The notes under the pieces were generated by a model. The model saw only the letters and a list, made by a program, of their open reading frames with translations, ran no database searches and was not told the origin of the DNA. A stretch of 64,000 nt of DNA, taken from IMG/VR virus record IMGVR_UViG_3300033070_001537, positions 2,296-66,295 of that record. The stretch is one strand, 5' to 3'. Position 1 is the stretch's first letter. Each line of letters opens with the position of its first letter. Of the stretch, positions 27,685-40,054 are shown in pieces. This DNA comes from a virus (Duplodnaviria > Caudoviricetes). The translations under genes and the position numbers were made by a program.

Positions 27685-27969
27685 ATGAAACCTGCGCTGA
27701 CAGACCCACCCATCACGCGGTACGAGATCGTCGGCTACCCTCACCCAACGGAACCGTTCGGCGAGATCACGATGGAGGACCACCCGCGCCCGACCGGAGG
27801 CTGGGTGCGGTGGTCCGACGTGGAGACGCTGTTCACGAGGGCCGACGTGGCGATGTTGAAGGACCTCCACCTGGCGACGATAGGCATGTCGGCCAACACC
27901 AACCGCGATATCTTTTCGCTCATCGAGCGGATCGAGGCGCTCCTTCCTCCTCCGCCAGCGAACCTCTAG
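27685..27969 (+). CDS. hypothetical protein
   Basis: ATG after GGAG; its TAG overlaps the first base of the repeat element. Confidence 0.65.
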   Translation: MKPALTDPPITRYEIVGYPHPTEPFGEITMEDHPRPTGGWVRWSDVETLFTRADVAMLKDLHLATIGMSANTNRDIFSLIERIEALLPPPPANL

Positions 27970-28371
27970 CACGGATCTTGCTTCGCGCGCGCGCACGGTA
28001 GGAGTTATTGAGCTATTGGCTATTGGCGGAATCTTTTTCGGGTTTGGTGTTCATACGGGTATCGAAGAGATTGCTCGTACGGGATTTAAGGCGAATCGGT
28101 TTACTAGAAACGAATTGAAACTCGAAAACGGAAAGTCACGCGCGCATGTGAGTTTCGGTATTTCGGTTCGCCGTGAGGTGTTTGGGCGTGAGATGCCGTC
28201 AGACAACGTCGAATATCGCTGCCCAGTTACGTTCGAGTCATCACACTCGCCTACAACCTCATATCAACAATCTCGTAGAGTACCAAACATTTACCGTAAG
28301 CCAAAAGATTCCGCCAATAGCCAATAGCTCAATAATTTCTACCGTGCGCGCGCGCGAAGCAAGAACCGTGC
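27969..28371. repeat. non-coding palindromic element, copy 2
   Basis: Same inverted arms and same core (TTTAAGGCGAATCGGTT...GAAACTCGAAAACGGAAAGTCACGCGCGCATGTGAGTTTCGGTA) as 1889-2195, plus about 100 bp of extra core sequence. Confidence 0.92.
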
Positions 28372-28381
28372 GAGACGACAG

Positions 28382-28411
28382 AAAGCCCCGCCTATCGAAG
28401 CGCGGGGCTTT
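28382..28411. terminator. bidirectional intrinsic terminator
   Basis: AAAGCCCCGC-loop-GCGGGGCTTT between convergent genes. Confidence 0.8.
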
Positions 28412-28436
28412 TCGTTTGTAACGAAATGCGGTGCTC

Positions 28437-29039
28437 TTACACGAGCACTTCCTTCAGCGGCTGCCCGAACCGCGGCGCCACATGCTCAGCGATGAACCGC
28501 GCATGCTCGCGAAGCGCCTCAACCGTCACGCGCAGGGTGCGCTCGCGAGCCCGCGTCTCCTTCGTCGTTCCGCGATGAACCTCGAAGGGGAAGGGATTGC
28601 CGGCAGCGAGTTCGGCGTCTACCAGGGCCGTCCACTCGGCGTGCATGCGATCCGCCTGCGCGAGCATGCTCGTGCGGAAGTTCGCCGGCGCTTCTTCGCT
28701 CTTCTCCGCGCACACGACATGTGATCCAGTGCAGTCGCCTTCGATCCATCCGTGTCCGGGGCGGTTGTATCCGTGCAGCACGACGCGATCGTTCTTCACG
28801 GCCTGCTGACGTCCGCAGAACGAGCAGGTGCCGCGAACCTGCACCCGTGCCACGACCTCTTCGACCTTGTACACCGCGATCGTCTGGTAGGAGCCTACGC
28901 CCCTGACCGCGACCTTGAGCGTATTCTGTGCAACGTGCCACTCGGCGACGTCTGCGATCCACGCACGACGCGCCTTGGTGTCTGTACGAAGGGCGCGCGG
29001 GACGCGGAGCTCGGCGATCTTGGTGGTCTTGGCGATCAT
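28437..29039 (-). CDS. hypothetical protein with a putative Zn-binding motif; the only clear minus-strand gene
   Basis: GTCSFCGRQQ...VLHGYNRPGHGWIEGDC; has its own promoter and terminator. Confidence 0.8.
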   Translation of the reverse strand: MIAKTTKIAELRVPRALRTDTKARRAWIADVAEWHVAQNTLKVAVRGVGSYQTIAVYKVEEVVARVQVRGTCSFCGRQQAVKNDRVVLHGYNRPGHGWIEGDCTGSHVVCAEKSEEAPANFRTSMLAQADRMHAEWTALVDAELAAGNPFPFEVHRGTTKETRARERTLRVTVEALREHARFIAEHVAPRFGQPLKEVLV

Positions 29040-29096
29040 AGCAGTTGACGTGGTGTTCTCGTCGTTGGGTGTGATTACTGCGGACTCGTTGGATTG

Positions 29097-29125
29097 AATC
29101 TACCGCCGTGTATGCGATCGTGCAA
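29097..29125 (-). promoter_or_regulatory. sigma70-like promoter (leftward)
   Basis: TTGCAC-N17-TAGATT on the minus strand. Confidence 0.7.
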
Positions 29126-29165
29126 GAGTTTGCTCGCAGTCAATTCACTCGTTTCGTGAGGTACT

Positions 29166-29194
29166 TTGCGTTCTCATGCGTCGCGTGGTACATT
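29166..29194 (+). promoter_or_regulatory. sigma70-like promoter, probably giving a leaderless transcript
   Basis: TTGCGT-N17-TACATT, then 6 nt to ATG 29201; no SD sequence. Confidence 0.6.
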
Positions 29195-29200
29195 CGCCCC

Positions 29201-29695
29201 ATGGCACCACGACGCGAACCCCGCCCGAAGCCTCCTGCCGACATCGCTGTGCAGGACCTTGGCGATGCCATCGTCACCGTGCCCGGCGACGGTGTGATGA
29301 TCGCCGAGTACCACAACGGCCGACCCGGACCGCCTACCAAGGCCATCCAGGCAGCGGCTCGCTTGGCGTACCTCCCGCGCCTCAAGTTTCTCACTGACAT
29401 GATCGACGGAGAGCTCGAGCGCAAGGTGACGATCCTCGGTGCCAAGGACAAGAAGACCACCATCATCGTCAAGCCGACGTTCCAGGAGCGCCTCGAGGCG
29501 ATGAAGGAGCTCGGGAAGATCGCCCAGCTGCACAACCCTCCGGCCGAGGTAGGGAGTGATACAGGCTCCGCCGCATTTGTTTCTCGAGCTCTCAACGCTC
29601 TTACCCAGCTTGCCGCCGGAATGGCAGCAGGTCGTGGAGAAGAGGCTCGAGTGGTTGACGCTCGCCCGACCGAATCAGGTCCGTCCGCCGGGTGA
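29201..29695 (+). CDS. putative terminase small subunit
   Basis: Position before terL; ERLEAMKELGKI segment; size. Confidence 0.55.
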   Translation: MAPRREPRPKPPADIAVQDLGDAIVTVPGDGVMIAEYHNGRPGPPTKAIQAAARLAYLPRLKFLTDMIDGELERKVTILGAKDKKTTIIVKPTFQERLEAMKELGKIAQLHNPPAEVGSDTGSAAFVSRALNALTQLAAGMAAGRGEEARVVDARPTESGPSAG

Positions 29696-30893
29696 AGACT
29701 GGTCGACGCTTCTGGCGCTCGCCGGACGAGGGTTCGGCAAGACCCGCATGGGCGCGGAAGACGTGGCGTGGGAAGGCATCACGCATGATGGGTGGCGCGT
29801 GGCTGTGGCTGCACCTACGTTCGGCGATGCTCGTGATACGTGCATGGAAGGAGAATCGGGTCTACTCAATGTGCTGCCCGACCGGTTCATCCGCTCGTGG
29901 AACCGGAGCCATGGCGTCCTCACGCTCAACAATGGCACCACCTATCGATGCTTTTCTGCCGAAGAGCCTGATCGCTTTCGAGGACCGCAGCATCACCTCC
30001 TCTGGGCGGACGAGCTCGCGGCATGGCCGTACGAAGACGCCTGGGACCAGGCTATGTTCGGCCTCCGACTTGGGTCGAATCCGCGCACTATCGCGACGAC
30101 CACACCACGCCCGACGAAGCTGATCAAACAGCTCGTCCGTCGTGCGATCGAGACGGGCGATGTGCGGTTGGTGACAGGCTCGACGTTCGACAACGCGGCC
30201 AACCTCCCCGCCAAGACGCTGGAGCGGCTGAAAGAGCGGTACGAAGGCACGCGCCTGGGCGAGCAGGAGCTCTATGCGAAGATCCTCGACGACATCGTCG
30301 GTGCGCTCTGGACGTATACGCTCCTGGAGAACTGCCGCCAGGTCGAGTATCCGGACAACCTCTCTCGGATCGTCGTCGCGGTAGACCCCGCTGTCACCAA
30401 GGGCAAGACGTCCAACGAGACAGGCATCGTCGTGTGTGGGTCGCGCCAGAAGCAAGGCTTCGTCTTGGAGGACGGTACGCTGTCGGGCACGCCCAACGAG
30501 TGGGGCTCGAAGGTCGTGGCGCTCTACCGCAAGTATCACGCGGACATGGTCGTCGCAGAAGTGAACAACGGTGGCGACCTCGTCGCCCACGTGATCCACG
30601 GCATCGATCCGAACATCAAGGTGAAGTCCGTGCGCGCGTCTCGAGGAAAGATTCCCCGCGCGGAGCCAATCTCAGGCCTGTACGAACAGGGCCGAGTGAA
30701 ACATGTCGGAACGTTCCGATATCTGGAAGATCAGATGTGCTCATATACACCGGAAAGTGAGAGTGACGGCGCCAACTCTCCTGACCGGATGGACGCGATG
30801 GTGTGGGGACTGACTGAGCTCATGGTAACGAACATCTTGCCAGATCTCGCCCCGCCTGTGGCGCTCCCGTTTCTCACGCCGTATGCCGTGTAA
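29556..30893 (+). CDS. terL: terminase large subunit
   Basis: AGRGFGKT (Walker A), WADE (Walker B), TTTPRP, AVDPA, EVNNGGD, SPDRMDAMVWG. Confidence 0.93.
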   Translation: MIQAPPHLFLELSTLLPSLPPEWQQVVEKRLEWLTLARPNQVRPPGEDWSTLLALAGRGFGKTRMGAEDVAWEGITHDGWRVAVAAPTFGDARDTCMEGESGLLNVLPDRFIRSWNRSHGVLTLNNGTTYRCFSAEEPDRFRGPQHHLLWADELAAWPYEDAWDQAMFGLRLGSNPRTIATTTPRPTKLIKQLVRRAIETGDVRLVTGSTFDNAANLPAKTLERLKERYEGTRLGEQELYAKILDDIVGALWTYTLLENCRQVEYPDNLSRIVVAVDPAVTKGKTSNETGIVVCGSRQKQGFVLEDGTLSGTPNEWGSKVVALYRKYHADMVVAEVNNGGDLVAHVIHGIDPNIKVKSVRASRGKIPRAEPISGLYEQGRVKHVGTFRYLEDQMCSYTPESESDGANSPDRMDAMVWGLTELMVTNILPDLAPPVALPFLTPYAV

Positions 30894-30906
30894 GGAGTGA
30901 AGCGCG

Positions 30907-32445
30907 ATGGCTGAAGGATCGACCATGGACGGAGCCGCCCAGGCATCGAGCAGCACGGTACAGCGTCAGCAATTCGGTGTCACGGGCCTGAAGGGCTACA
31001 CGACCGGATTTCTGAGCGAGGAGTTCTTGCCCGCGTTGCGCGGGCAGCCCGGGGCGAAGAAGTTCAGAGAGATGAGCGACAACGACCCCGTCCTCGGGTC
31101 GGTGCTGTTCGCGGCGTCGATGATGATCCGCAACGTGAACTGGTCGCTCACCGCCGGCAGCGACGCCGATAGCGCGGCGCAGGCGCAGGAGTTCGTCGAC
31201 CAGTGTCTGTTCAAGGACATGGCGACGCCGTTCACCGACGTGGTCGAAGAAGCGATGAGCATGCTCATCTACGGCTTCGCGCCCATGGAGAAGGTGTACA
31301 AGGTGCGCCGAGGGCCTGCGAAGCTGCCGCCTGCTCCTGGCGCCGATGCGGCCTACGGCGACTGGATTGCGTACATCGAGCAGCGGTCGCGCATCCCCGC
31401 GGGCTCGCTGTACGACGACGGCAAGATCGGTGTGCACAAGATCGCCCTTCGCGCCCAGGACACGGTGTGGCGCTGGTACTTCGACGCGCATGGCGATTGG
31501 ATGGCCATGGAGCAACAGAAGGAGCGAGGCGCGAACGTCATCATCCCGCGCTCGAAGCTGTTGCTCTTCCGCACCACGACGACGAAGAACAACCCCGAGG
31601 CTCGCAGTGTGCTTCGGTCGTCCTACGTCTCCTACGAGCGGAAGAAGCACCTCGAGATCCAGGAAGGTCGATTCGCGACGCGCCGGAACGGCGTGGCAGT
31701 GTTCCGCATCCCGTCGATGTACATGGATCCGGGCGCGTCGGACCGCGAGCGGGCGATCTTCAATTACTACAAGGACCTCGCCACCAAGGTCAGCACGGAC
31801 CAGCAAGGCGGCATGGTCATTCCGGCGGATCGGGACGACAAGGGCAACCCGATCGTTGACTTCGAGTGGAAGAGCCTGAGCGCCTCCGGTACGACGGGCG
31901 GCTCGGCGAGCGAAGTCATCGACCGCATCGACCATCGTATGGCGATGAGCGTCCTGGCTGACTTCGTGCTGCTCGGCCAGCAGTCCGTGGGCAGCTTCGC
32001 GCTGAGCAGCGACAAGACGAACCTCTTCGCGTCGGCGCTGGGCGGCTTCCTCAAGGCCATTGCGGAGGAGGTCAACACCGGGCTGATCGCTGAGCTGTGC
32101 GACCTGAACAACATCGCGATCGAAGACCGTCCGACGCTTCAGCCCGGCGACATCGAAAATCGCGACCTCCTCCAGTTGAGCTCCTACCTCAGCCAGCTGG
32201 CTGCCGCGGGCATGCCGTTCTTCCCGGACGACAATCTGGAGAACTGGCTCCGCGATCAGGCGGGCATGCCCGAGAAGCCGGAAGAGCTCGATGATGCCGT
32301 GGAAGAGAAGAAGGATGGCGAGATGCAACGCCAAATGGACCTCATGGCCGCGAAGACCAAGGCTGGAGAGAAGGACGAGAAGGGCAAGAAGCCGGGCACG
32401 AAGACCGCTGCCGAACCGAACGCCAAAGCTGAGGAGAAAGAGTAA
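30907..32445 (+). CDS. portal protein (Mu gp29/DUF935-like)
   Basis: Follows terL; 512 aa; MLIYGFAPMEKVY, RSVLRSSY, GSFALSSDKT..F. Confidence 0.85.
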   Translation: MAEGSTMDGAAQASSSTVQRQQFGVTGLKGYTTGFLSEEFLPALRGQPGAKKFREMSDNDPVLGSVLFAASMMIRNVNWSLTAGSDADSAAQAQEFVDQCLFKDMATPFTDVVEEAMSMLIYGFAPMEKVYKVRRGPAKLPPAPGADAAYGDWIAYIEQRSRIPAGSLYDDGKIGVHKIALRAQDTVWRWYFDAHGDWMAMEQQKERGANVIIPRSKLLLFRTTTTKNNPEARSVLRSSYVSYERKKHLEIQEGRFATRRNGVAVFRIPSMYMDPGASDRERAIFNYYKDLATKVSTDQQGGMVIPADRDDKGNPIVDFEWKSLSASGTTGGSASEVIDRIDHRMAMSVLADFVLLGQQSVGSFALSSDKTNLFASALGGFLKAIAEEVNTGLIAELCDLNNIAIEDRPTLQPGDIENRDLLQLSSYLSQLAAAGMPFFPDDNLENWLRDQAGMPEKPEELDDAVEEKKDGEMQRQMDLMAAKTKAGEKDEKGKKPGTKTAAEPNAKAEEKE

Positions 32446-32448
32446 ACC

Positions 32449-33051
32449 GTGGATCCCCTATTTGCATCCGTCGCAGAGGCGCTCGCCAAGCAAGCCCGTA
32501 AGCCCGCCGGCGGTCCCGGCGGCGGTCAATTCGCTTCGGGCGGAGGGTCGAAAGGCGGCAAAAAGATGACGACAGGGCAGCAGGCTCGGTATCGCGACCA
32601 GAAAGAGCGTCTGCAGATGCACCTGAGCCATCGAACTCTGGCTCGTGAACGAGGCGATCCAAGACTTGCGGCTGAATCCCGTCGCGGTGCCAAGGAAGCG
32701 ATACGTGAGATGCGCATCGCTCGGGGTGATATGGTCGGAGGCGGGAGTGGGAAGAAAAGAAAAAGCAAGCCCGTAGACACGCCCGCAAGCCTGACCAGTT
32801 CCATCCGTAACCTTCGCTCGGCCATGCACTTCTCTGCGCGCGTCGGCGACAAGGTCAACCTTGAGGCTCAGCGCACCCGAACCAAGGACCTCATTGCCCG
32901 CCATCGTGCCCTTGTCCCCAAGAAGCCGAAGGCCAAGCGCGATCCTTGGAAAGAGCGCCAAGACGAGCACGACACGTGGCGAGATGAAGCGCGGTTCCGT
33001 ACGCAGACGGGGTTCCACCGAGGCTTCCGTCCCGGACTGCCGAGGTCCTGA
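32449..33051 (+). CDS. tagged basic head-module protein A
   Basis: N-terminal LAKQARKPAGGPGGGQF tag, Arg/Lys-rich remainder. Confidence 0.75.
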   Translation: MDPLFASVAEALAKQARKPAGGPGGGQFASGGGSKGGKKMTTGQQARYRDQKERLQMHLSHRTLARERGDPRLAAESRRGAKEAIREMRIARGDMVGGGSGKKRKSKPVDTPASLTSSIRNLRSAMHFSARVGDKVNLEAQRTRTKDLIARHRALVPKKPKAKRDPWKERQDEHDTWRDEARFRTQTGFHRGFRPGLPRS

Positions 33052-33054
33052 CCG

Positions 33055-34071
33055 TTGGACTTCCTCCAGAAGCGCGACCGAGATGTCTGGGCCCAGTGGG
33101 ACGAATGGGCCCAGCAACTCGAGCCCAGCATCCGCAAGTCTTTCCTCGAGGCGATGACGGCGCTTCGCGATGCGTTGTCGGTGGCGACGATGACGACAAT
33201 CATCGCGGCGGGCGACACCGCGAAGCTCACAGAATACGTGCTCGCGGCGCTTGGCGCCTTGGAACAGGTACAGGATGCCATCAGCGATTCCATCGTGCGA
33301 GCGGGCGCGACCGTCGCAGAGACGATGCCGAAACAGGTGCTCGTCCGCTTCGATCGTTACGATGCCGAGATGATCCGGCGGGTCAACGCGGAGTCGCTGA
33401 AACTCGTGCAGCAGATCACGGAAGACGTCCGCGTGACGTTGGCCGACATCGTGCGCGACGGCCTGTCGTCGGGTGGCGGGCCTGCGGTGACGGCGCAGAA
33501 CATCAAGACGGAAATCGGACTCACGCAACGTCAGCGGAAGGCGGTGGCGAACTTCCGCCGCATGCTGATCGAAGGGGACCGCGAGGCGCTGACGCGCGAA
33601 TTGCGAGACCGTCGGTTCGATCGTACGTTGGAACAAGTGTTCACGGGCGCGCGCCGGCTCTCTCCTGAAGAGATCCAGCGCATGACCGACCGGTATGCGG
33701 AGCGGTACATTCGGTATCGCGCGGAGTCGATCGCGCGCACCGAGTCGATCCGTGCACAAGCGGTCGGCAACGCCCAGGCGTGGGCGCAGGCGCTGAAGAC
33801 CAACCCGGGTCTCCGGCTCCGCGTCAAGCGGCGGTGGTATGTGGCACCGAGCGAGGGCCCGAGCAGCCGTCGGGTGAAGGGCAAGATCGGCGGGAAGCCG
33901 AAGAGCGGTCGCAGTGAGGTGCGGTTGTGCCCGGTGTGTCGTGCCATTCCCGGCATGAACAGCAACGGGCGCGACATCGATGAGCCGTTTCAGACACCGA
34001 TCGGCACGTTGATGTATCCGCCTGTTCATCCCCATTGTCGGTGTGTCGTCTTTACAGGAGTAGCCAACTGA
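33055..34071 (+). CDS. head morphogenesis protein (MuF/SPP1 gp7-like)
   Basis: RAESIARTES, CPVC...PPVHPHCRCVV C-terminus. Confidence 0.88.
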   Translation: MDFLQKRDRDVWAQWDEWAQQLEPSIRKSFLEAMTALRDALSVATMTTIIAAGDTAKLTEYVLAALGALEQVQDAISDSIVRAGATVAETMPKQVLVRFDRYDAEMIRRVNAESLKLVQQITEDVRVTLADIVRDGLSSGGGPAVTAQNIKTEIGLTQRQRKAVANFRRMLIEGDREALTRELRDRRFDRTLEQVFTGARRLSPEEIQRMTDRYAERYIRYRAESIARTESIRAQAVGNAQAWAQALKTNPGLRLRVKRRWYVAPSEGPSSRRVKGKIGGKPKSGRSEVRLCPVCRAIPGMNSNGRDIDEPFQTPIGTLMYPPVHPHCRCVVFTGVAN

Positions 34072-34649
34072 TGGATCCCCTCGTTTCAGCAGTAGCAGAA
34101 GCTCTCGCCAAGCAGGCACGGAAGCCCGCAGGCGGTCCGGGCGGTGGGCAATTCGCGTCAGGCGGCGGAGGAAGCCGAGGAGGAGGTCCTGTGCGCCGCC
34201 TCGGCCGCGAGGTCCGCGAGCACCAAAAAGACGCAGATTTCGCTGCCAAAGACAAGACCAGGTCGTCTCGATCGAGTGTGATCAGCCACGATCGAGCGAA
34301 GACCCTGTCGCAGGCGGCGCAGCGGATTTCGGAAACGGAAGGCCACTGGTCGCAGCGGGCCGGGCATGCGCGAGCCCTCGTGCGGGCAGCTGAGAACCGC
34401 TCCGATCGAAAGATGGAATGGGCCCGATTCGCTCGGAAGGACGAGAAGACCCAACTAGGTTTGGTGCGAAGCAAGCAGAAAGAAAGGGCGAGCATGCTCC
34501 TTTCTCGTATCGAAGATCGACGCGACTCGTTGAAGGACAGGTCGCGTGAACTCGCCTCCGCGGGGAAGTTTGACTCGAAAGTCGAGCGGTCTATTCGACA
34601 CCTGACAAATCGAAAAGACAAACTCGACCGATTCAGATCGAGTCTGTAG
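34071..34649 (+). CDS. tagged basic head-module protein B
   Basis: N-terminus MDPLVSAVAEALAKQARKPAGGPGGGQFASGGG almost identical to protein A; unrelated basic C-terminus. Confidence 0.75.
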   Translation: MDPLVSAVAEALAKQARKPAGGPGGGQFASGGGGSRGGGPVRRLGREVREHQKDADFAAKDKTRSSRSSVISHDRAKTLSQAAQRISETEGHWSQRAGHARALVRAAENRSDRKMEWARFARKDEKTQLGLVRSKQKERASMLLSRIEDRRDSLKDRSRELASAGKFDSKVERSIRHLTNRKDKLDRFRSSL

Positions 34650-34652
34650 TCG

Positions 34653-35975
34653 ATGACCCCCGCGCTCCTCGCTCGCCTAGAGTCTCTGCTCGCCAAGCAG
34701 GCTCGCCAGCCGGCAGGCGCGCCTGGAGGCACAGGCGGGCAGTTTGCTCCGATGAACCCCGCGGAGGTCGGCATCGCTGCCTCTATGGGCTTGCCCACGT
34801 CCTATTCAGGCACGCAAGGCAAGACGTGGGCCAACCGCGGCGATACGAAGGAGATGCTGCACGTGGTCGACAATCCGCTGCGGCGGACGTCGGCGATGAC
34901 ACATGCGGAGGCTACGTCGGTGAAGTTCAGCGACTACGCCTCGGAGCGGCGAAAGGTACCGATCGCCTCGTTGCGCACGACCCAAGACTACATCCTGCCG
35001 TCGGACGTCAAGCGGTATCGAGGCCCAGCTGACCACAACGAGTGGGCGCGCGGGCGCCCGTCCGTGGTCGAGCACAAGGGGCGCATGGTGGTCGTGGACG
35101 GCAATCATCGCACCGTCGCCGCCATGCTGAACGGAGACAAGGAGATTGAAGTGGACTACTTCACGCCTCGCCTGCGGAAGCAAGCTCGCCAGCCTGCTGG
35201 CGTTCCGGGCGGGCATGGCGGCGAGTTTGCAGCGACGACGCTTGGCGGTATAGGCACCGTCGCTCCGGCGAAGAAGGCGCCACCCACCGCGAAGGTTCTC
35301 GCGGCTGCCGGCGTGGGCGAGTGGTCAGCGGCGGAGAAAGATGCGCTCGGGTTCTACCAAGGGTTTTCGTACGCCGGAATGAACTACGTGATGCGGATGG
35401 GAAAGGGAGATCCCGACCGCGGCGCGAAGTCTCCTCACTTTCGATCGTTGATGCTCGAAGAAGGTCGAGAGCGAGTGGTTCGGCACGCGAAGACGCTCAG
35501 CGACGCGATGTCGAAGGTAGAGCCTATCCAGCACGAAGCTGTCGTCTACCGTTCGGTCTCATCGGGCGCGTCGCTGTTCAACCCTATCATCGGTCTGACC
35601 AACTACGGCGTGAACCGTCGGCAGTCGCATCTCCTGCACGAGACGATGACGTCGCTGGACACTCGCTTGGCATCGATGGTCGGTAAGACCATCAAGGACC
35701 ACGGATTCACGTCGACCACCGCGGACGAGAAGCAGGCGGTGAAGTGGATGTCCAGGACAGACCCGAAGCTCCGCGGACCCGATCAGCGGGTGATGTTCCG
35801 CATCACGGCTCCGAAGGGCAGCAAGGGGCTCTGGGCCGAGAAGATCAATCCGAACCAGAAGGACTACGTGGTCCAGAAAGAGTGGATCGTGGCGCCGGGT
35901 ACGCGGTACAAGATCACCGGCGTCGGGAAACACGCCAGCGGCGCACACCTTGTCGAAATGGAGATCGTCCCATGA
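34653..35975 (+). CDS. tagged ParB/Srx-like plus ADP-ribosyltransferase (VIP2/C3-like) fusion protein
   Basis: Tag, then TQD...VVVDGNHRTVAA; second tag, then VVYRSV, GFTSTT, ITAPKG, QKEW (R-S-QxE triad). Confidence 0.8.
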   Translation: MTPALLARLESLLAKQARQPAGAPGGTGGQFAPMNPAEVGIAASMGLPTSYSGTQGKTWANRGDTKEMLHVVDNPLRRTSAMTHAEATSVKFSDYASERRKVPIASLRTTQDYILPSDVKRYRGPADHNEWARGRPSVVEHKGRMVVVDGNHRTVAAMLNGDKEIEVDYFTPRLRKQARQPAGVPGGHGGEFAATTLGGIGTVAPAKKAPPTAKVLAAAGVGEWSAAEKDALGFYQGFSYAGMNYVMRMGKGDPDRGAKSPHFRSLMLEEGRERVVRHAKTLSDAMSKVEPIQHEAVVYRSVSSGASLFNPIIGLTNYGVNRRQSHLLHETMTSLDTRLASMVGKTIKDHGFTSTTADEKQAVKWMSRTDPKLRGPDQRVMFRITAPKGSKGLWAEKINPNQKDYVVQKEWIVAPGTRYKITGVGKHASGAHLVEMEIVP

Positions 35976-37072
35976 ACACCGACCGTTTCACCGATTGGGA
36001 TTCGTCGGGGTTGTTCGCTGACGACGATCCCGTTACCAAGTCTACGCCAAGCCTGTCAGACGTCCATGCTCCGACGTCTGTCTCCCTCGTTCGCAGGAAA
36101 AAGAAGATGAAGCCGAAGGCAGGCGAAGTCGAAGTCCAGATGTCGCTGGAAAAGGTCGAAGATGATCAGCGCATGGCCTGGGGCTGGGCGAGCGTCACCA
36201 CCCGCAACGGGCAGCCGCTGGAAGACCTCCAGGGCGATGTCATCGAGACCGAAGAGCTCCAGAAAGCCGTCCACGAGTTCGTCCGCAAGAAGCGGATCAT
36301 GGGCGAGATGCACACCGTGATCGGCACAGGCGACATCGTCGACAGCATCGTCTTCACCAACGACATCCAGAAGGCGCTCGGCATCGACCTGGGCAAGGAA
36401 GGCTGGTTCGTCGGCGTGCATGTGACGAACGACGGCACCTGGTCGAAGGTAAAGAAGGGCGAGCTCCGCGGCTTCAGTCTCGGCGGCTTCGGTGTGCGCG
36501 AGCTCATGAAGTCGATGGAGGACGACGAGTCCTTCGAACTGGATGTCGAAGACCTCGACAAGCGTCTCGACTTCATCGAGCAGCTCGAGGCGCGACTAGA
36601 GAAGATGGCTCGAAAGCCCGCGGGCGCGCCGGGCGGAACAGGCGGGCAATTCACGAGCGGGCCTGCTGGGTTCGGGAATGGAGGCGTCGCTCGGAAGCCC
36701 GCAGGAGGGTATGATGCGCAAAATCCCGATCACGTAGCTCGAAGAAAGCTGGCCGGGGATCTGCGGATACTTCTTCAAGAAGCTCGAGAAGTGTCTCGTA
36801 CACATCCCGAGAAAGCGTCTTACATACGGGCACAGGTGCGATTTCACGTCGCTGAAGCTGAAGCCAACGGAAGAGTGAAGGACCGTTCTCGGTTTCACGA
36901 TGACAAATATGATCGAATGATCGAGAGAAATCTGCGCACCGCGAAAAAGGCGCTCATCGAGTCCGAAAAGGCGTACAAGAAAACCCGTAATCGAAAGACG
37001 GATCCGAGTTTTACGCCGTTTTTCAAACCCGATCCAGCCGGACGGTCTGTCACCCTCGGGCAGAGTCAATAG
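35972..37072 (+). CDS. XkdF-like prohead maturation protease with a C-terminal tagged cargo domain
   Basis: QRMAWGWASV...DLQGD...EMH...GWFVG...WSKVKKGELRGFSLGG; then LEKMARKPAGAPGGTGGQF. Confidence 0.85.
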   Translation: MNTDRFTDWDSSGLFADDDPVTKSTPSLSDVHAPTSVSLVRRKKKMKPKAGEVEVQMSLEKVEDDQRMAWGWASVTTRNGQPLEDLQGDVIETEELQKAVHEFVRKKRIMGEMHTVIGTGDIVDSIVFTNDIQKALGIDLGKEGWFVGVHVTNDGTWSKVKKGELRGFSLGGFGVRELMKSMEDDESFELDVEDLDKRLDFIEQLEARLEKMARKPAGAPGGTGGQFTSGPAGFGNGGVARKPAGGYDAQNPDHVARRKLAGDLRILLQEAREVSRTHPEKASYIRAQVRFHVAEAEANGRVKDRSRFHDDKYDRMIERNLRTAKKALIESEKAYKKTRNRKTDPSFTPFFKPDPAGRSVTLGQSQ

Positions 37073-37471
37073 ATGCGATTCGATCCTCACTCCGTATCTC
37101 TGAAGGTCGCGTCTATGGGAAGCGCCGTAGGCGGGCTGTGGGGGGCGGCCGCCGAGTCCGTCCGCGTTGCGGCACAACCTGTACCGAAGGATTCTGTGGA
37201 ACACCTCATCGCAGCGATCGGTCTCGGTGGGGCCGCCGGTGTCTTGACCACGGTGCTCGTCGTAGGCACGTACAAGGCGAAAGTCGACAGTCACGGCGAA
37301 GCCATCAAGGAATTGCTCCAGAAAAAGGCCGATGCGGACTCGGTAAACTCCGTCAAAGAGCTCATCCAGAAGAAGGCGGATGCGGAAGTGGTGGAGATGA
37401 TTCAACACCAGGTTGCCCGTATCGATGAAGCTACCCAGATGCTGGTCCGCCACCTGTTGGATCGGAAGTAG
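37073..37471 (+). CDS. membrane protein with coiled-coil tail (holin-like, uncertain)
   Basis: LIAAIGLGGAAGVLTTVLVV TM segment followed by a coiled coil. Confidence 0.45.
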   Translation: MRFDPHSVSLKVASMGSAVGGLWGAAAESVRVAAQPVPKDSVEHLIAAIGLGGAAGVLTTVLVVGTYKAKVDSHGEAIKELLQKKADADSVNSVKELIQKKADAEVVEMIQHQVARIDEATQMLVRHLLDRK

Positions 37472-37522: not shown

Positions 37523-38584
37523 ATGGCAACAAAGGTCCGCAAGCTGCGCATCGAAGAATTGTCGGGTGTGGATCGCCCGGCCAACCAAGAAGGATGGATG
37601 GTCCTCGTGAAGAACTATCAGGCACGTGGGTTGGCCACTCTGCAGAAGGTCGCCGAACGTCTCGGCCTTGGCGAGTACGTTGCCAAGTCGGCCCCCGAGG
37701 GAGACGATGACGACGATCTCCTCGATGAGATCGAAGCGGAGCTCGACGAGCTCGAAGACGACGAGCACATCGGCAAGTCCGACGATGACGACCTCACGGA
37801 CGACGAACTCGATGAGATCGAAGCCGAACTCGATGATCTCGACGAGGACGACAACGTCCAGAAGGGCGTGATGTGCAAAGGCTGCGGCAAGAAGCCGATG
37901 CAGAAGGGCGCGAAGGGGATGTGCGCGGACTGCGCCTCCGAATCCGTCGGAAAGTCGTTCGCCTCCGGCTCCCTGGAGGACCTGATCGCCAAGCAATTTG
38001 GCGACGCTGCATCACCCTCTCCAATCTCAAAGAACCAGGAGTCCCCCGTGAAGCTCACCGGCAGTGAAGTGGAAAGCATCGTCAAGTCGCTCACGCCGGC
38101 GGCGCGTGAGCTGGTAACGGAGCTCATCACCAAGAACGTGGAAGCAGAGTCCGCCGTGGCCAAAGCCAACGAGCAGCTCACCACGCTCTCCAAGGCGGTC
38201 GAGAAGCTCGTGGAAACGAACGCCGACGCTCAGCTCACCACGCTCGCCAAGTCGCTGATCCCGCCCAATGCGCCGATCACGGTGGAAGAGGCGAAGGTGC
38301 TGCTCAAGTCCGCCGGCGACAACGCCGACGCGCGTGCAGCGGTCGAGAAGACGCTGAAGACGATGGGGCAGCTCGCCGCGAGCTCCAGCCTCTTCAAGTC
38401 CTTCGGTGACAACCCGGTCACGGCGGATTCGGCGGGCGAGTCGTCTGCGGTCACAGCCATCAACAAGGCGGCGGGCGAGCTGCGCACCGCGAAGCCGACG
38501 CTCACGGCAGAGCAGGCGGTCGCTGAGGCGCTCACGGCGAATCCGGCCTTGTACGAGCAGTTCATGGCCGCGTCGCAGCAGTAA
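37523..38584 (+). CDS. capsid scaffolding protein
   Basis: IEELSGVDRPAN N-terminus, acidic repeats, coiled coil, EQAVAEALTANPALYEQF end; lies before the cement and capsid genes. Confidence 0.75.
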   Translation: MATKVRKLRIEELSGVDRPANQEGWMVLVKNYQARGLATLQKVAERLGLGEYVAKSAPEGDDDDDLLDEIEAELDELEDDEHIGKSDDDDLTDDELDEIEAELDDLDEDDNVQKGVMCKGCGKKPMQKGAKGMCADCASESVGKSFASGSLEDLIAKQFGDAASPSPISKNQESPVKLTGSEVESIVKSLTPAARELVTELITKNVEAESAVAKANEQLTTLSKAVEKLVETNADAQLTTLAKSLIPPNAPITVEEAKVLLKSAGDNADARAAVEKTLKTMGQLAASSSLFKSFGDNPVTADSAGESSAVTAINKAAGELRTAKPTLTAEQAVAEALTANPALYEQFMAASQQ

Positions 38585-38620: not shown

Positions 38621-38998
38621 ATGTCTTACAGCGCAAACACGGTGGTCGACGGCACGATGACTGCGGCGGCGGACCTTTCCGCCCTTCAGTTTCGCGCGGT
38701 CCGCATCACGGCAGCGAATCAGGTCAACCAGGTCACCGCAGCGACGCAGGTGTTCGCGGGCGTCCTGCAGAACAAGCCCACGAGCGGCCAGGCGGCGGAA
38801 GTCGCCACGGGCGGCACGGTCAAGTGGGAAGCTGGCGCGGCCATTGCGGTCGGCGCTGAAGTGATGTGCGACTCGGTGGGTCGTTGCATCACGGCGGTGA
38901 CCACAGGCAATCGCGTCTGCGGCATCGTCAAAGTGGCGGCAGGTGCAGCGGGCGAAATCGTCTCGGTGCTCCTGACGGGCGTTCGCGTTCTTCCGTAA
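38621..38998 (+). CDS. capsid cement/decoration protein (DUF2190-like)
   Basis: AAADLS..FRAV..GVLQNKP.SGQAAEV..GG.VK.EAGAAIAVG. Confidence 0.8.
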   Translation: MSYSANTVVDGTMTAAADLSALQFRAVRITAANQVNQVTAATQVFAGVLQNKPTSGQAAEVATGGTVKWEAGAAIAVGAEVMCDSVGRCITAVTTGNRVCGIVKVAAGAAGEIVSVLLTGVRVLP

Positions 38999-39034: not shown

Positions 39035-40054
39035 ATGCTGATCACCAAGAGGCAGCTGATGGAAGCGGTTCTGCAAAAGAGCCAGCCGACCCTCAGCGAC
39101 GTCCACATCAGCCAGCCGCTCACGTCCATTTCGATGGCGTGGCTCCAGTTGGCCTCGGCGTACGTGGCAGCGAGCCGGATCTTCCCGGTCGTGCCCGTTG
39201 CCAAGCAGAGCGACGTCTACTACGTCTTCAACCGCGGGGACTTCCTCCGCGACGAGGCGCGCCCGCGCGCCCCGGGCACGGAGTCGGCTGGCGGCGGATT
39301 CAATCTGTCGACCCAGAACTACTCCTGCATCACGGAGGCGTTCCACTGGGACATTCCTGACCCGATCCGCGCCAACGCGGACTCGATCCTGTCGCTGGAT
39401 CGTGCGGGCACGGAGTTCGTCACGCAGATCCTCGCGATCCGTCGCGAGCGTCGCTTCTTCACGTCGTTCTTCACGACCGGCGTGTGGGGCACGGACATCA
39501 CGGGCGTGAACAGCGGCCCGACCGGCGGCCAGACGGTTCGCTGGAACGTCACCGGCTCGCTGCCGCGCGCCGATGTCGACACGGCCAAGAACACTCTGCT
39601 TCAGCAGGGTTTGATCGGCCTGAAATTCCGCCTGCTCATCGGGCAGGAAGTCTTCACCGCGCTCCGCGGCCACGCGGACGTGCGCGATCAGTTCAAGTAC
39701 ACCAGCGCCGAGTCCATCACGACCGACATGCTGGCTCGCTACTTCGATGTCGATGAAGTGGTGGTGAGCCAGGGCGCATATGTCAGCTCGGCGGAAGGTG
39801 CTACCGTGGCGAATGCGTTCTTCGCGGGCAAGCATGCCCTCCTGGTCGCGGTGCCGCCTTCGCCGTCAATCATGACGCCGTCGGCCGGTTACATCTTCTC
39901 GTGGACGGGCTACATGGGCGGCGGAGGCGGCATTCGCATCAAGCGTCTGCGCGCCGACCTGCTCGAGTCCGACCGGATCGAGGGCGACATGTCGTTCGAC
40001 ATGAAAGTCACGGCGCCTTCGCTCGGGTACTTCTTCTCCACGATTGTCGCGTAA
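39035..40054 (+). CDS. major capsid protein (HK97 fold)
   Basis: 339 aa after scaffold/cement; DVHISQPLT..IFPVVPVAKQS; followed by strong hairpins. Confidence 0.85.
   Translation: MLITKRQLMEAVLQKSQPTLSDVHISQPLTSISMAWLQLASAYVAASRIFPVVPVAKQSDVYYVFNRGDFLRDEARPRAPGTESAGGGFNLSTQNYSCITEAFHWDIPDPIRANADSILSLDRAGTEFVTQILAIRRERRFFTSFFTTGVWGTDITGVNSGPTGGQTVRWNVTGSLPRADVDTAKNTLLQQGLIGLKFRLLIGQEVFTALRGHADVRDQFKYTSAESITTDMLARYFDVDEVVVSQGAYVSSAEGATVANAFFAGKHALLVAVPPSPSIMTPSAGYIFSWTGYMGGGGGIRIKRLRADLLESDRIEGDMSFDMKVTAPSLGYFFSTIVA

Follow-up and report, generated by a model that had tools for sequence, protein, structure and literature searches.

In bacteriophage T4, a roughly 10-residue N-terminal sequence targets proteins to the capsid, and gp21 cuts small peptides off the N-termini of the internal proteins IPI-III and of the ADP-ribosyltransferase (ART) Alt (PMC9958956). 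For phage P1, residues 1-30 of DarB are enough to bring a reporter into the capsid, and the authors report no consensus among the Dar proteins (PMC9024508). Here we describe a peptide, called the tag below, that occurs five times in four head genes of a virus (Duplodnaviria; Caudoviricetes) represented by IMG/VR record IMGVR_UViG_3300033070_001537. The stretch analyzed, referred to as the window, comprises 64,000 of the 66,295 bp of this record, and all coordinates are window positions. The tag has the consensus L-x-K-[Q/M]-A-R-x-P-A-G-x-P-G-(G-x)-G-G-[Q/E]-F. Judging from sequence comparison, it most likely serves as a portable leader for proteins packed into the capsid, because one peptide fronts five unrelated modules and because the modules of a close relative have been swapped at this same peptide.

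As with IPI-III and Alt of T4, a short N-terminal peptide is found on unrelated head proteins, an ART among them, and the cargo behind it would likewise be located inside the head. The T4 pattern further comprises non-essential head proteins that are delivered with the DNA, and removal of the N-terminal peptide by the prohead protease, which is also proposed here. The two systems differ in that the prohead protease of the window belongs to the S78_2 type, with a putative cut after lysine, whereas that of T4 is gp21; in that the most conserved part of the tag would stay on the mature protein; and in that the tag also marks joints within proteins and follows the protease domain. By analogy with DarB, in which a segment of fewer than 30 residues precedes a large anti-defence cargo, the tag may act as an N-terminal signal on the cargo of the window. 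Unlike in P1, however, a single consensus is common to every cargo module of the window and to distant phages.

Polyvalent proteins contain ART, ParB-like, NUDIX and zincin peptidase domains, are encoded near head genes and are often linked to MuF, and processing by the zincin peptidase has been proposed for them (Iyer, Burroughs, Anand, de Souza, Aravind 2017; PMC5512222). In the window, two or more effector domains on one polypeptide are found in a 440-residue protein, the other three tagged genes having one module each, and the head block provides the late, virion-related neighborhood with MuF. In contrast to polyvalent proteins, the modules of the window are mostly separate small genes, and no zincin peptidase was detected in the tagged proteins; Pfam and PHROG searches of the tagged block revealed no peptidase besides the PF14550 prohead protease, and no zincin-like metallopeptidase. 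The MuF polymorphic toxins of temperate phages consist of a conserved delivery part and variable C-terminal modules with toxic or effector functions (Jamet et al. 2017, PMC5576092). Here, too, C-terminal modules vary between close relatives in a MuF context (the window compared with the contig L001 and the protease P0012, described below), but the conserved part is a leader of roughly 30 residues and not a domain. Because the MuF protein stands alone and the effectors are encoded by separate genes, the system of the window is not a MuF-toxin fusion. Judging by term searches, neither the polyvalent-protein paper nor the MuF-toxin paper describes the joint motif (PMC5512222, PMC5576092). The genes are tightly packed, and no obvious small open reading frame that could encode a cognate immunity protein follows the ART, although no search was aimed at immunity genes. 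By analogy, the tag system may work like the targeting signals of T4 and P1 and like the polymorphic MuF toxins.

The tag and the modules behind it

A six-frame regular-expression scan of the window recovered all five copies of the tag listed in the original prediction, which had been made from the sequence alone, and all of them lie on the + strand (Table 1). The back-translated core A-R-x-P-A-G-x-P-G matches the window five times, as compared to 0.01 matches expected from 100 dinucleotide shuffles, and no copy beyond the five tags occurs in the whole 66,295-bp record. Twelve positions (L, K, A, R, P, A, G, P, G, G, G and F) never vary across 11 copies, five from the window and six from the relative L001. 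Tags 1 and 2 are identical in residues 9-32 and in 28 of 32 residues overall, and yet their 32 codons differ by 14 synonymous and four non-synonymous changes (80% nucleotide identity), with all four non-synonymous changes falling within the first seven codons, the start codon among them. The longest exact DNA match for any pair of window tags is 14 nt. Given this number of synonymous differences and the lack of any longer exact match, the tag is under selection as a peptide, as had been predicted from its synonymous divergence, rather than as a DNA recombination site. Such recoding of the copies would also limit deletion between direct repeats. The tag peptide is absent from the Pfam and PHROG models with which the window proteins were searched, no relatives were found among solved structures for the tag profile, MuF or gp78 of Gordonia phage Forza (both the profile and gp78 are described below), and literal strings of the motif were found in no relevant paper text.

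The only close relative in the collections searched is L001, a 41.5-kb IMG/VR contig whose capsid protein is 94% identical to that of the window and whose MuF protein is about 71% identical; its six tags all lie inside the corresponding head block. Collinear homology between the two sequences (BLASTN) covers 27958-32546, 33054-34747 and 35178-36693. It ends 14, 2 and 41 nt past the final phenylalanine codon of tags 1, 3 and 5, respectively, and restarts at the lysine codon of tag 4, such that all four of these breakpoints (32546, 34747, 36693 and 35178) are located at tag edges. In the slot of tagged protein A, L001 holds an unrelated 141-residue protein behind a tag of identical protein sequence, and the 3′ half of the cargo of protein A (32756-33051) reappears as the protease tail of L001, with about 79% identity. 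A second ART (PF03496, E 6.5e-9) occupies the place of the ParB-like module of the window, the ART of the window has a gene to itself in L001, headed by a tag at the N-terminus, and an additional tagged gene lies ahead of the scaffold gene. Behind the same tag, the protease orthologue of a third relative (P0012) has a different tail again, and the tail thus differs across three orthologues. The orthologues of protein B have cargo that is about 86% identical, with the tag as their least conserved part, and the tag core of the L001 protein matches the core of another L001 tag.

Homology thus stops or resumes at the tags, behind which modules have been replaced, moved or split, and the tag therefore forms the constant 5′ edge of exchangeable cassettes, a pattern known from polymorphic toxins. 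The swapping of cassettes that the original prediction had envisaged is therefore evident in modules that have been replaced, transposed or split in L001, and cargo domains fixed across relatives, an outcome named in advance as contrary to it, are not what was observed, as the cargo varies. The coincidence of breakpoints and tags is also what would be expected if the repeats were DNA-level recombination sites for cassette exchange that have no function as peptides. We regard this explanation as extremely improbable in view of the synonymous divergence noted above, the 12 invariant amino-acid positions and the retention of the motif at the protein level in proteins that have no DNA similarity. 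A DNA recombination signal alone was rejected, since the tags are recoded within the genome. Neither megablast with the head block nor tblastn with the ParB-ART protein matched any of 50,697 cultured-phage records, IMG/VR contained no match to a strict 13-codon DNA pattern, and MuF-based scans of genome and metagenome contigs found no relative beyond L001; the P0012 protease was not found in IMG/VR.

As had been proposed, the cargo segments behind the tags are mutually unrelated (BLASTP, E<1e-3). The ART assignment is confirmed by a match to PF03496 (E 1.5e-12) with the R, S-T-T and Q-x-E motifs. That of the ParB/Srx-like module holds in part: it was missed by Pfam, but a D-G-N-H-R motif is present, and an Atlas model of residues 34-176 of the 440-residue protein matched ParB/Srx clusters at template modeling (TM) scores of 0.56-0.66, including clusters with fusions of this fold to an S78_2 protease or a portal. 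Proteins A and B had been described as Arg/Lys-rich and helical and the protease tail as basic, which agrees with the K+R fractions of 0.21-0.26 and the long helices in AlphaFold2 models for all three; every cargo segment is net basic. The suggestion that several cargo stretches are AT-rich applies to the protease tail only, where the GC content of 0.525 (0.631 for the window) is below the 1st percentile of 400-nt windows, whereas the other cargo stretches have values of 0.59-0.64.

The head-gene block

The tag is associated with head genes. All tagged genes of the window belong to a tightly packed + strand block located between the large terminase gene (29556-30893) and the tail genes, in the order portal, tagged A, MuF, tagged B, ParB-ART, protease, scaffold and capsid. 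Past its catalytic domain, the protease continues through an acidic linker and a helix ending in L-E-K to tag 5 and a three-helix basic tail (36653-37072).

Table 1. Tags and genes of the head block (window positions)
Feature	Position	Strand	Description
Mu-type portal protein	30907..32445	+	PF06074 E 4.6e-26; phrog_113; upstream border of tagged block
Tagged protein A, 200 aa	32449..33051	+	Tag region 32449-32532, then basic helical cargo; K+R 0.26
Tag 1	32482-32532	+	N-terminus of protein A
MuF-like head morphogenesis protein, 338 residues	33055..34071	+	Untagged; phrog_3517 E 2.9e-54
Tagged protein B, 192 aa	34071..34649	+	Tag region 34071-34154, Gly-rich linker, one very long basic helix
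Tag 2	34104-34154	+	N-terminus of protein B
Two-module protein, 440 aa	34653..35975	+	Tag 3 (34653-34745), ParB/Srx-like, tag 4 (35172-35228), ART
Tag 3	34689-34745	+	N-terminus of 440-residue protein
Tag 4	35172-35228	+	Residues 174-192 of 440-residue protein, between ParB/Srx-like module and ART
Prohead protease, S78_2/XkdF type	35972..37072	+	PF14550 E 7.9e-19; long C-terminal extension
Tag 5	36596-36652	+	Residues 209-227 of prohead protease, after catalytic domain
132-residue protein	37073-37471	+	Between protease and scaffold
Scaffold-like protein	37523..38584	+	55-residue stretch, 60% Asp/Glu (37688-37852)
Cement/decoration protein	38621-38998	+	
Lambda-E-type major capsid protein	39035..40054	+	phrog_1005 E 5.6e-69

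The same head-gene order is found in the cultured phages RDJL Phi 1 and KPP23, whose capsid proteins are about 43% identical to that of the window. The acidic stretch of the scaffold-like protein is present in the window, L001 and the distant locus L010, all of which bear tags, and is absent from the tag-less RDJL Phi 1 and KPP23. We treat this stretch as a weak lead, a possible partner to which the basic cargo would be drawn electrostatically.

Other features of the block were noted in passing. Directly after its acidic stretch, the scaffold-like protein contains a CxxC-(12)-CxxC zinc-ribbon-like motif (37874-37933), as does its L001 counterpart, and similar Cys pairs follow the protease domain in the distant homologues P0062 and P0075. 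The 132-residue protein combines two hydrophobic stretches rich in Gly/Ala with a coiled-coil-like repeat at its C-terminus; its L001 counterpart is 90% identical, RDJL Phi 1 and KPP23 lack it, and a membrane-like protein is an odd occupant of a head block. Short sequences at 1885-2199 and 27958-28375 match a single 400-bp region of L001 (5506-5905) in both orientations, and thus form a repeated, partly inverted element upstream of the packaging genes and near the window start.

A putative lysine cleavage site and a core predicted to be flexible

We propose that the tag is a two-part leader, in which a prohead-protease cut site after L-x-K is followed by a Gly/Pro-rich core that would be kept on the released modules, and, of the readings considered, this one has the best support, although we hold it to be about evenly balanced between right and wrong. 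The first part would be a short helix ending in L-x-K, at which the S78_2 prohead protease encoded by the phage itself would most likely cut; cuts at similar sites would probably free the capsid protein of a 15-residue extension and the protease of a 23-residue peptide. The second part, R-x-P-A-G-x-P-G-G-x-G-G-[Q/E]-F, is predicted to be flexible and would stay at the new N-terminus, where it would most likely either dock the cargo inside the assembling procapsid or lead the cargo out on ejection. Candidate docking partners are the scaffold, MuF, the portal and the inner shell surface. The cargo, comprising the ART, the ParB/Srx-like module and the basic helical proteins, would then enter the host together with the DNA, as do Alt and the internal proteins of T4. 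Because every module has the same header, modules could be exchanged, fused or split without losing delivery. Encapsulin cargo proteins, though unrelated to one another, carry a short, flexible, Gly-rich peptide by which they dock in the interior of an HK97-fold shell; these peptides are unrelated in sequence to the tag and usually C-terminal, and encapsulins have no portal, protease or DNA, such that the parallel is one of mechanism only.

The L-x-K sequence is invariant in all 11 copies, and [LIVM]-x-K occurs no more than 14 residues upstream of the core in 65% of 74 copies from the collected proteins, as compared to 16% of control windows, which amounts to a four-fold enrichment. In both the window and L001, the capsid protein carries an N-terminal extension of 15 codons (39035-39079 in the window) that ends in L-x-K, and the end of the window extension corresponds to the start of the RDJL Phi 1, KPP23 and L010 capsid proteins. 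As it is absent from tag-less relatives, this extension is a probable propeptide. The sequence K-S-x-P-x-L-S-D-V-H is common to the N-terminus of the protease (36038-36064) and the capsid protein (39077-39106), and the protease may therefore carry a mimic of the capsid N-arm; in another protein, P0060, the same K-S...D-V-H junction joins the protease to a tagged basic cargo. Taken together, L-x-K and the capsid junction would fit a Lys-specific maturation cut that leaves the core at new N-termini. A cut after lysine, at Lys103, is attributed to HK97. A cargo helix that mimics the N-terminal extension of the capsid protein was also considered and was rejected, as only L-x-K is common to the two (rank 2675/106,964 in the matrix search described below).

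AlphaFold2 models are in keeping with a division of the tag into two parts, with a helix before the lysine, a disordered tag core and Gly-rich linker with predicted local distance difference test (pLDDT) scores of <50, and helical cargo with scores of 84-96. The model of the protease contains a catalytic domain (residues 66-165, pLDDT mostly 77-96 and about >=90 over 71-160), a helix (192-213), the tag core (216-243, pLDDT <50) and tail helices (252-342). That of protein B has a helix at residues 3-15, a disordered segment at 17-41 and helices at 41-163 and 169-191. Foldseek searches with the protease model returned weak matches only, to a herpesvirus protease.

The invariance of L-x-K and its enrichment upstream of the core might instead indicate that the core is a substrate-recognition element for the prohead protease only, an enzyme that would divide polyproteins and shorten N-termini, with capsid loading achieved by other means, either attraction of basic cargo to the acidic scaffold stretch or fusion to the protease. 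The location of tags at the ParB-like/ART and protease/tail fusion joints would suit such a role, as would cargo that is net basic and acidic scaffold stretches that are restricted to the tag-bearing phages in this comparison. We nevertheless consider this reading unlikely, if by no means remote. An element of 15 residues on the primed side would be unusually long, no core is found behind the putative cut site of the capsid protein, and most copies elsewhere are located at the extreme N-terminus, where a cut would remove just 5-30 residues. Moreover, anything from 1 to 11 residues (most often two) separates the lysine from the core, a variability that suggests two separate elements.

Distribution of the tag in phages and bacteria

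A profile of 45 positions, built from the 11 copies of the window and L001, matched 45 proteins at E<=1e-3 among 1.84 billion representatives. The T4 pattern of one short N-terminal peptide on unrelated proteins, present in the window as five copies in four genes, is also apparent here, in that the match begins within the first 60 residues in 38 of the 45 proteins (counted from the table of matches). Many of the matches are proteins of 1300-1750 residues in which a copy at the N-terminus is accompanied by a second one, with a shorter loop, near residues 320-515, and a NUDIX domain is present in two of the large proteins checked; such matches fit the polyvalent-protein class. Multiple copies also occur, with six in one protein and three in another. 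The DNA core pattern was found at 15 IMG/VR loci, and at 11 of these the tagged gene has as its neighbor a gene for a MuF homologue, a portal, an XkdF-type protease or a minor head protein, the MuF gene usually being directly upstream. The protease-tag-cargo layout recurs twice, in the distant S78_2 protease P0066 and in the locus L021. In the latter, a fragment of an alphaproteobacterial metagenome-assembled genome (MAG), an HK97-type protease (PF04586) is followed by the tag, poly-Gly and a pesticin-like lysozyme (PF16754) in one gene (L021:1410-2879), a fusion that represents a candidate capsid-delivered cell-wall enzyme. The distant locus L010 encodes a tagged protein with an H-E-x-x-H motif.

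In locus L012, the long variant of the motif adjoins a short variant consisting of K-H-P-R, a few residues and G-[R/Q]-F. The short variant is also present at residue 34 of gp78 of Gordonia phage Forza (L081:7710-9914, 734 residues), which is encoded directly after the portal gene, with a 1017-residue ART protein and a maturation protease downstream; this cultured actinophage is a possible experimental model. The 2146-residue particle-associated ART protein of Yersinia phage fHe-Yen8-01 is without the motif. It is possible, though we think it doubtful, that the core and the short variant together constitute a widespread, undescribed cargo-address peptide of tailed phages that is read by a conserved head component, much as encapsulin shells read their loading peptides. 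Any protein headed by it would then be packed and delivered with the DNA, and the upstream lysine site would free each module.

The proximity of MuF genes, likewise a weak lead to the partner of the tag, brings to mind another arrangement, in which the tag would be a docking peptide for the MuF-like protein, creating a non-covalent, split version of the MuF-toxin fusions, and portal-bound MuF would carry any tagged module into the head. A MuF homologue is encoded immediately upstream of the tagged genes in at least seven IMG/VR loci (L006, L008, L009, L010, L011, L016 and L019), the stop codon of the window MuF gene overlaps the start of tagged gene B, and MuF domains are known to carry fused effectors (PMC5512222, PMC5576092). 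Tagged gene A lies ahead of the MuF gene, however, and no MuF-tag-cargo fusion was present among 101 collected proteins. Virions usually contain few MuF copies, a number that does not sit well with five or six cargo species, and on balance we judge docking to MuF to be distinctly unlikely.

Several points weigh against the two-part leader. The phage is known from a metagenomic record alone. In the AlphaFold2 model of the full protease the tag makes no contact with the catalytic domain, and a position matrix of the tag helix ranks the capsid N-terminus 2675 of 106,964. Tags are absent from RDJL Phi 1 and KPP23, whose proteases do not extend past the catalytic domain. Because these phages lack it, the tag is not needed for head assembly as such, and the tag system is an add-on to a head module that already works. 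The core also occurs, in the context D-W-D-P-x-K-H-P-R, in a conserved alphaproteobacterial chromosomal protein, with no phage genes detected near the chromosomal locus. This protein accounts for 14 of 53 genome-contig loci (read from the table of matches), in alphaproteobacterial MAGs that belong mostly to Xanthobacteraceae, and about half of the 53 pattern matches are chance, off-frame occurrences in GC-rich DNA. Conservation of the core in a chromosomal, non-phage context means that its role may exceed capsids.

The chromosomal protein is about 270-300 residues long and has the core in the middle of its chain, ahead of a Pro-rich stretch and a C-terminal domain rich in Cys (L055:4316-5599, L023, L026, L029, L035, L037, L038, L054, L057, L060, L063 and L071); its neighbors in L055 are ftsK, aminotransferase and TPR genes. 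In one groundwater proteobacterial MAG, two proteins (L036:26-1174 and L065:552-1382) have a common N-terminal region and tag and diverge completely about 40 residues past the tag, resembling a polymorphic-toxin pair. Both the conserved chromosomal protein and the variable C-termini that follow the core in the groundwater pair would be compatible with a core that is a general joint or a host-side motif, such as a flexible hinge or a peptide that binds a conserved bacterial factor after delivery. The motif in viral contigs is, however, tightly linked to head genes and to N-termini, and every one of the five window and six L001 copies lies inside the head block, leaving this explanation highly unlikely in our estimation.

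For the two-part leader, we infer cleavage after the lysine, packaging and ejection, and such a function fits the head context, the N-terminal bias of the motif elsewhere, the invariant L-x-K and the likely L-x-K site of the capsid protein. Injected proteins decide the first minutes of infection, through anti-restriction, transcription takeover and cell-wall breaching, and the manner in which they are chosen for packaging is understood in few model phages only. The window and L001 together represent a clean natural experiment for the idea of a shared header. If this idea is correct, injected proteins could be listed straight from metagenomic sequence, the shuffling of effectors between close relatives that is observed here would be explained, and the tag would offer a handle for loading foreign proteins into phage heads.

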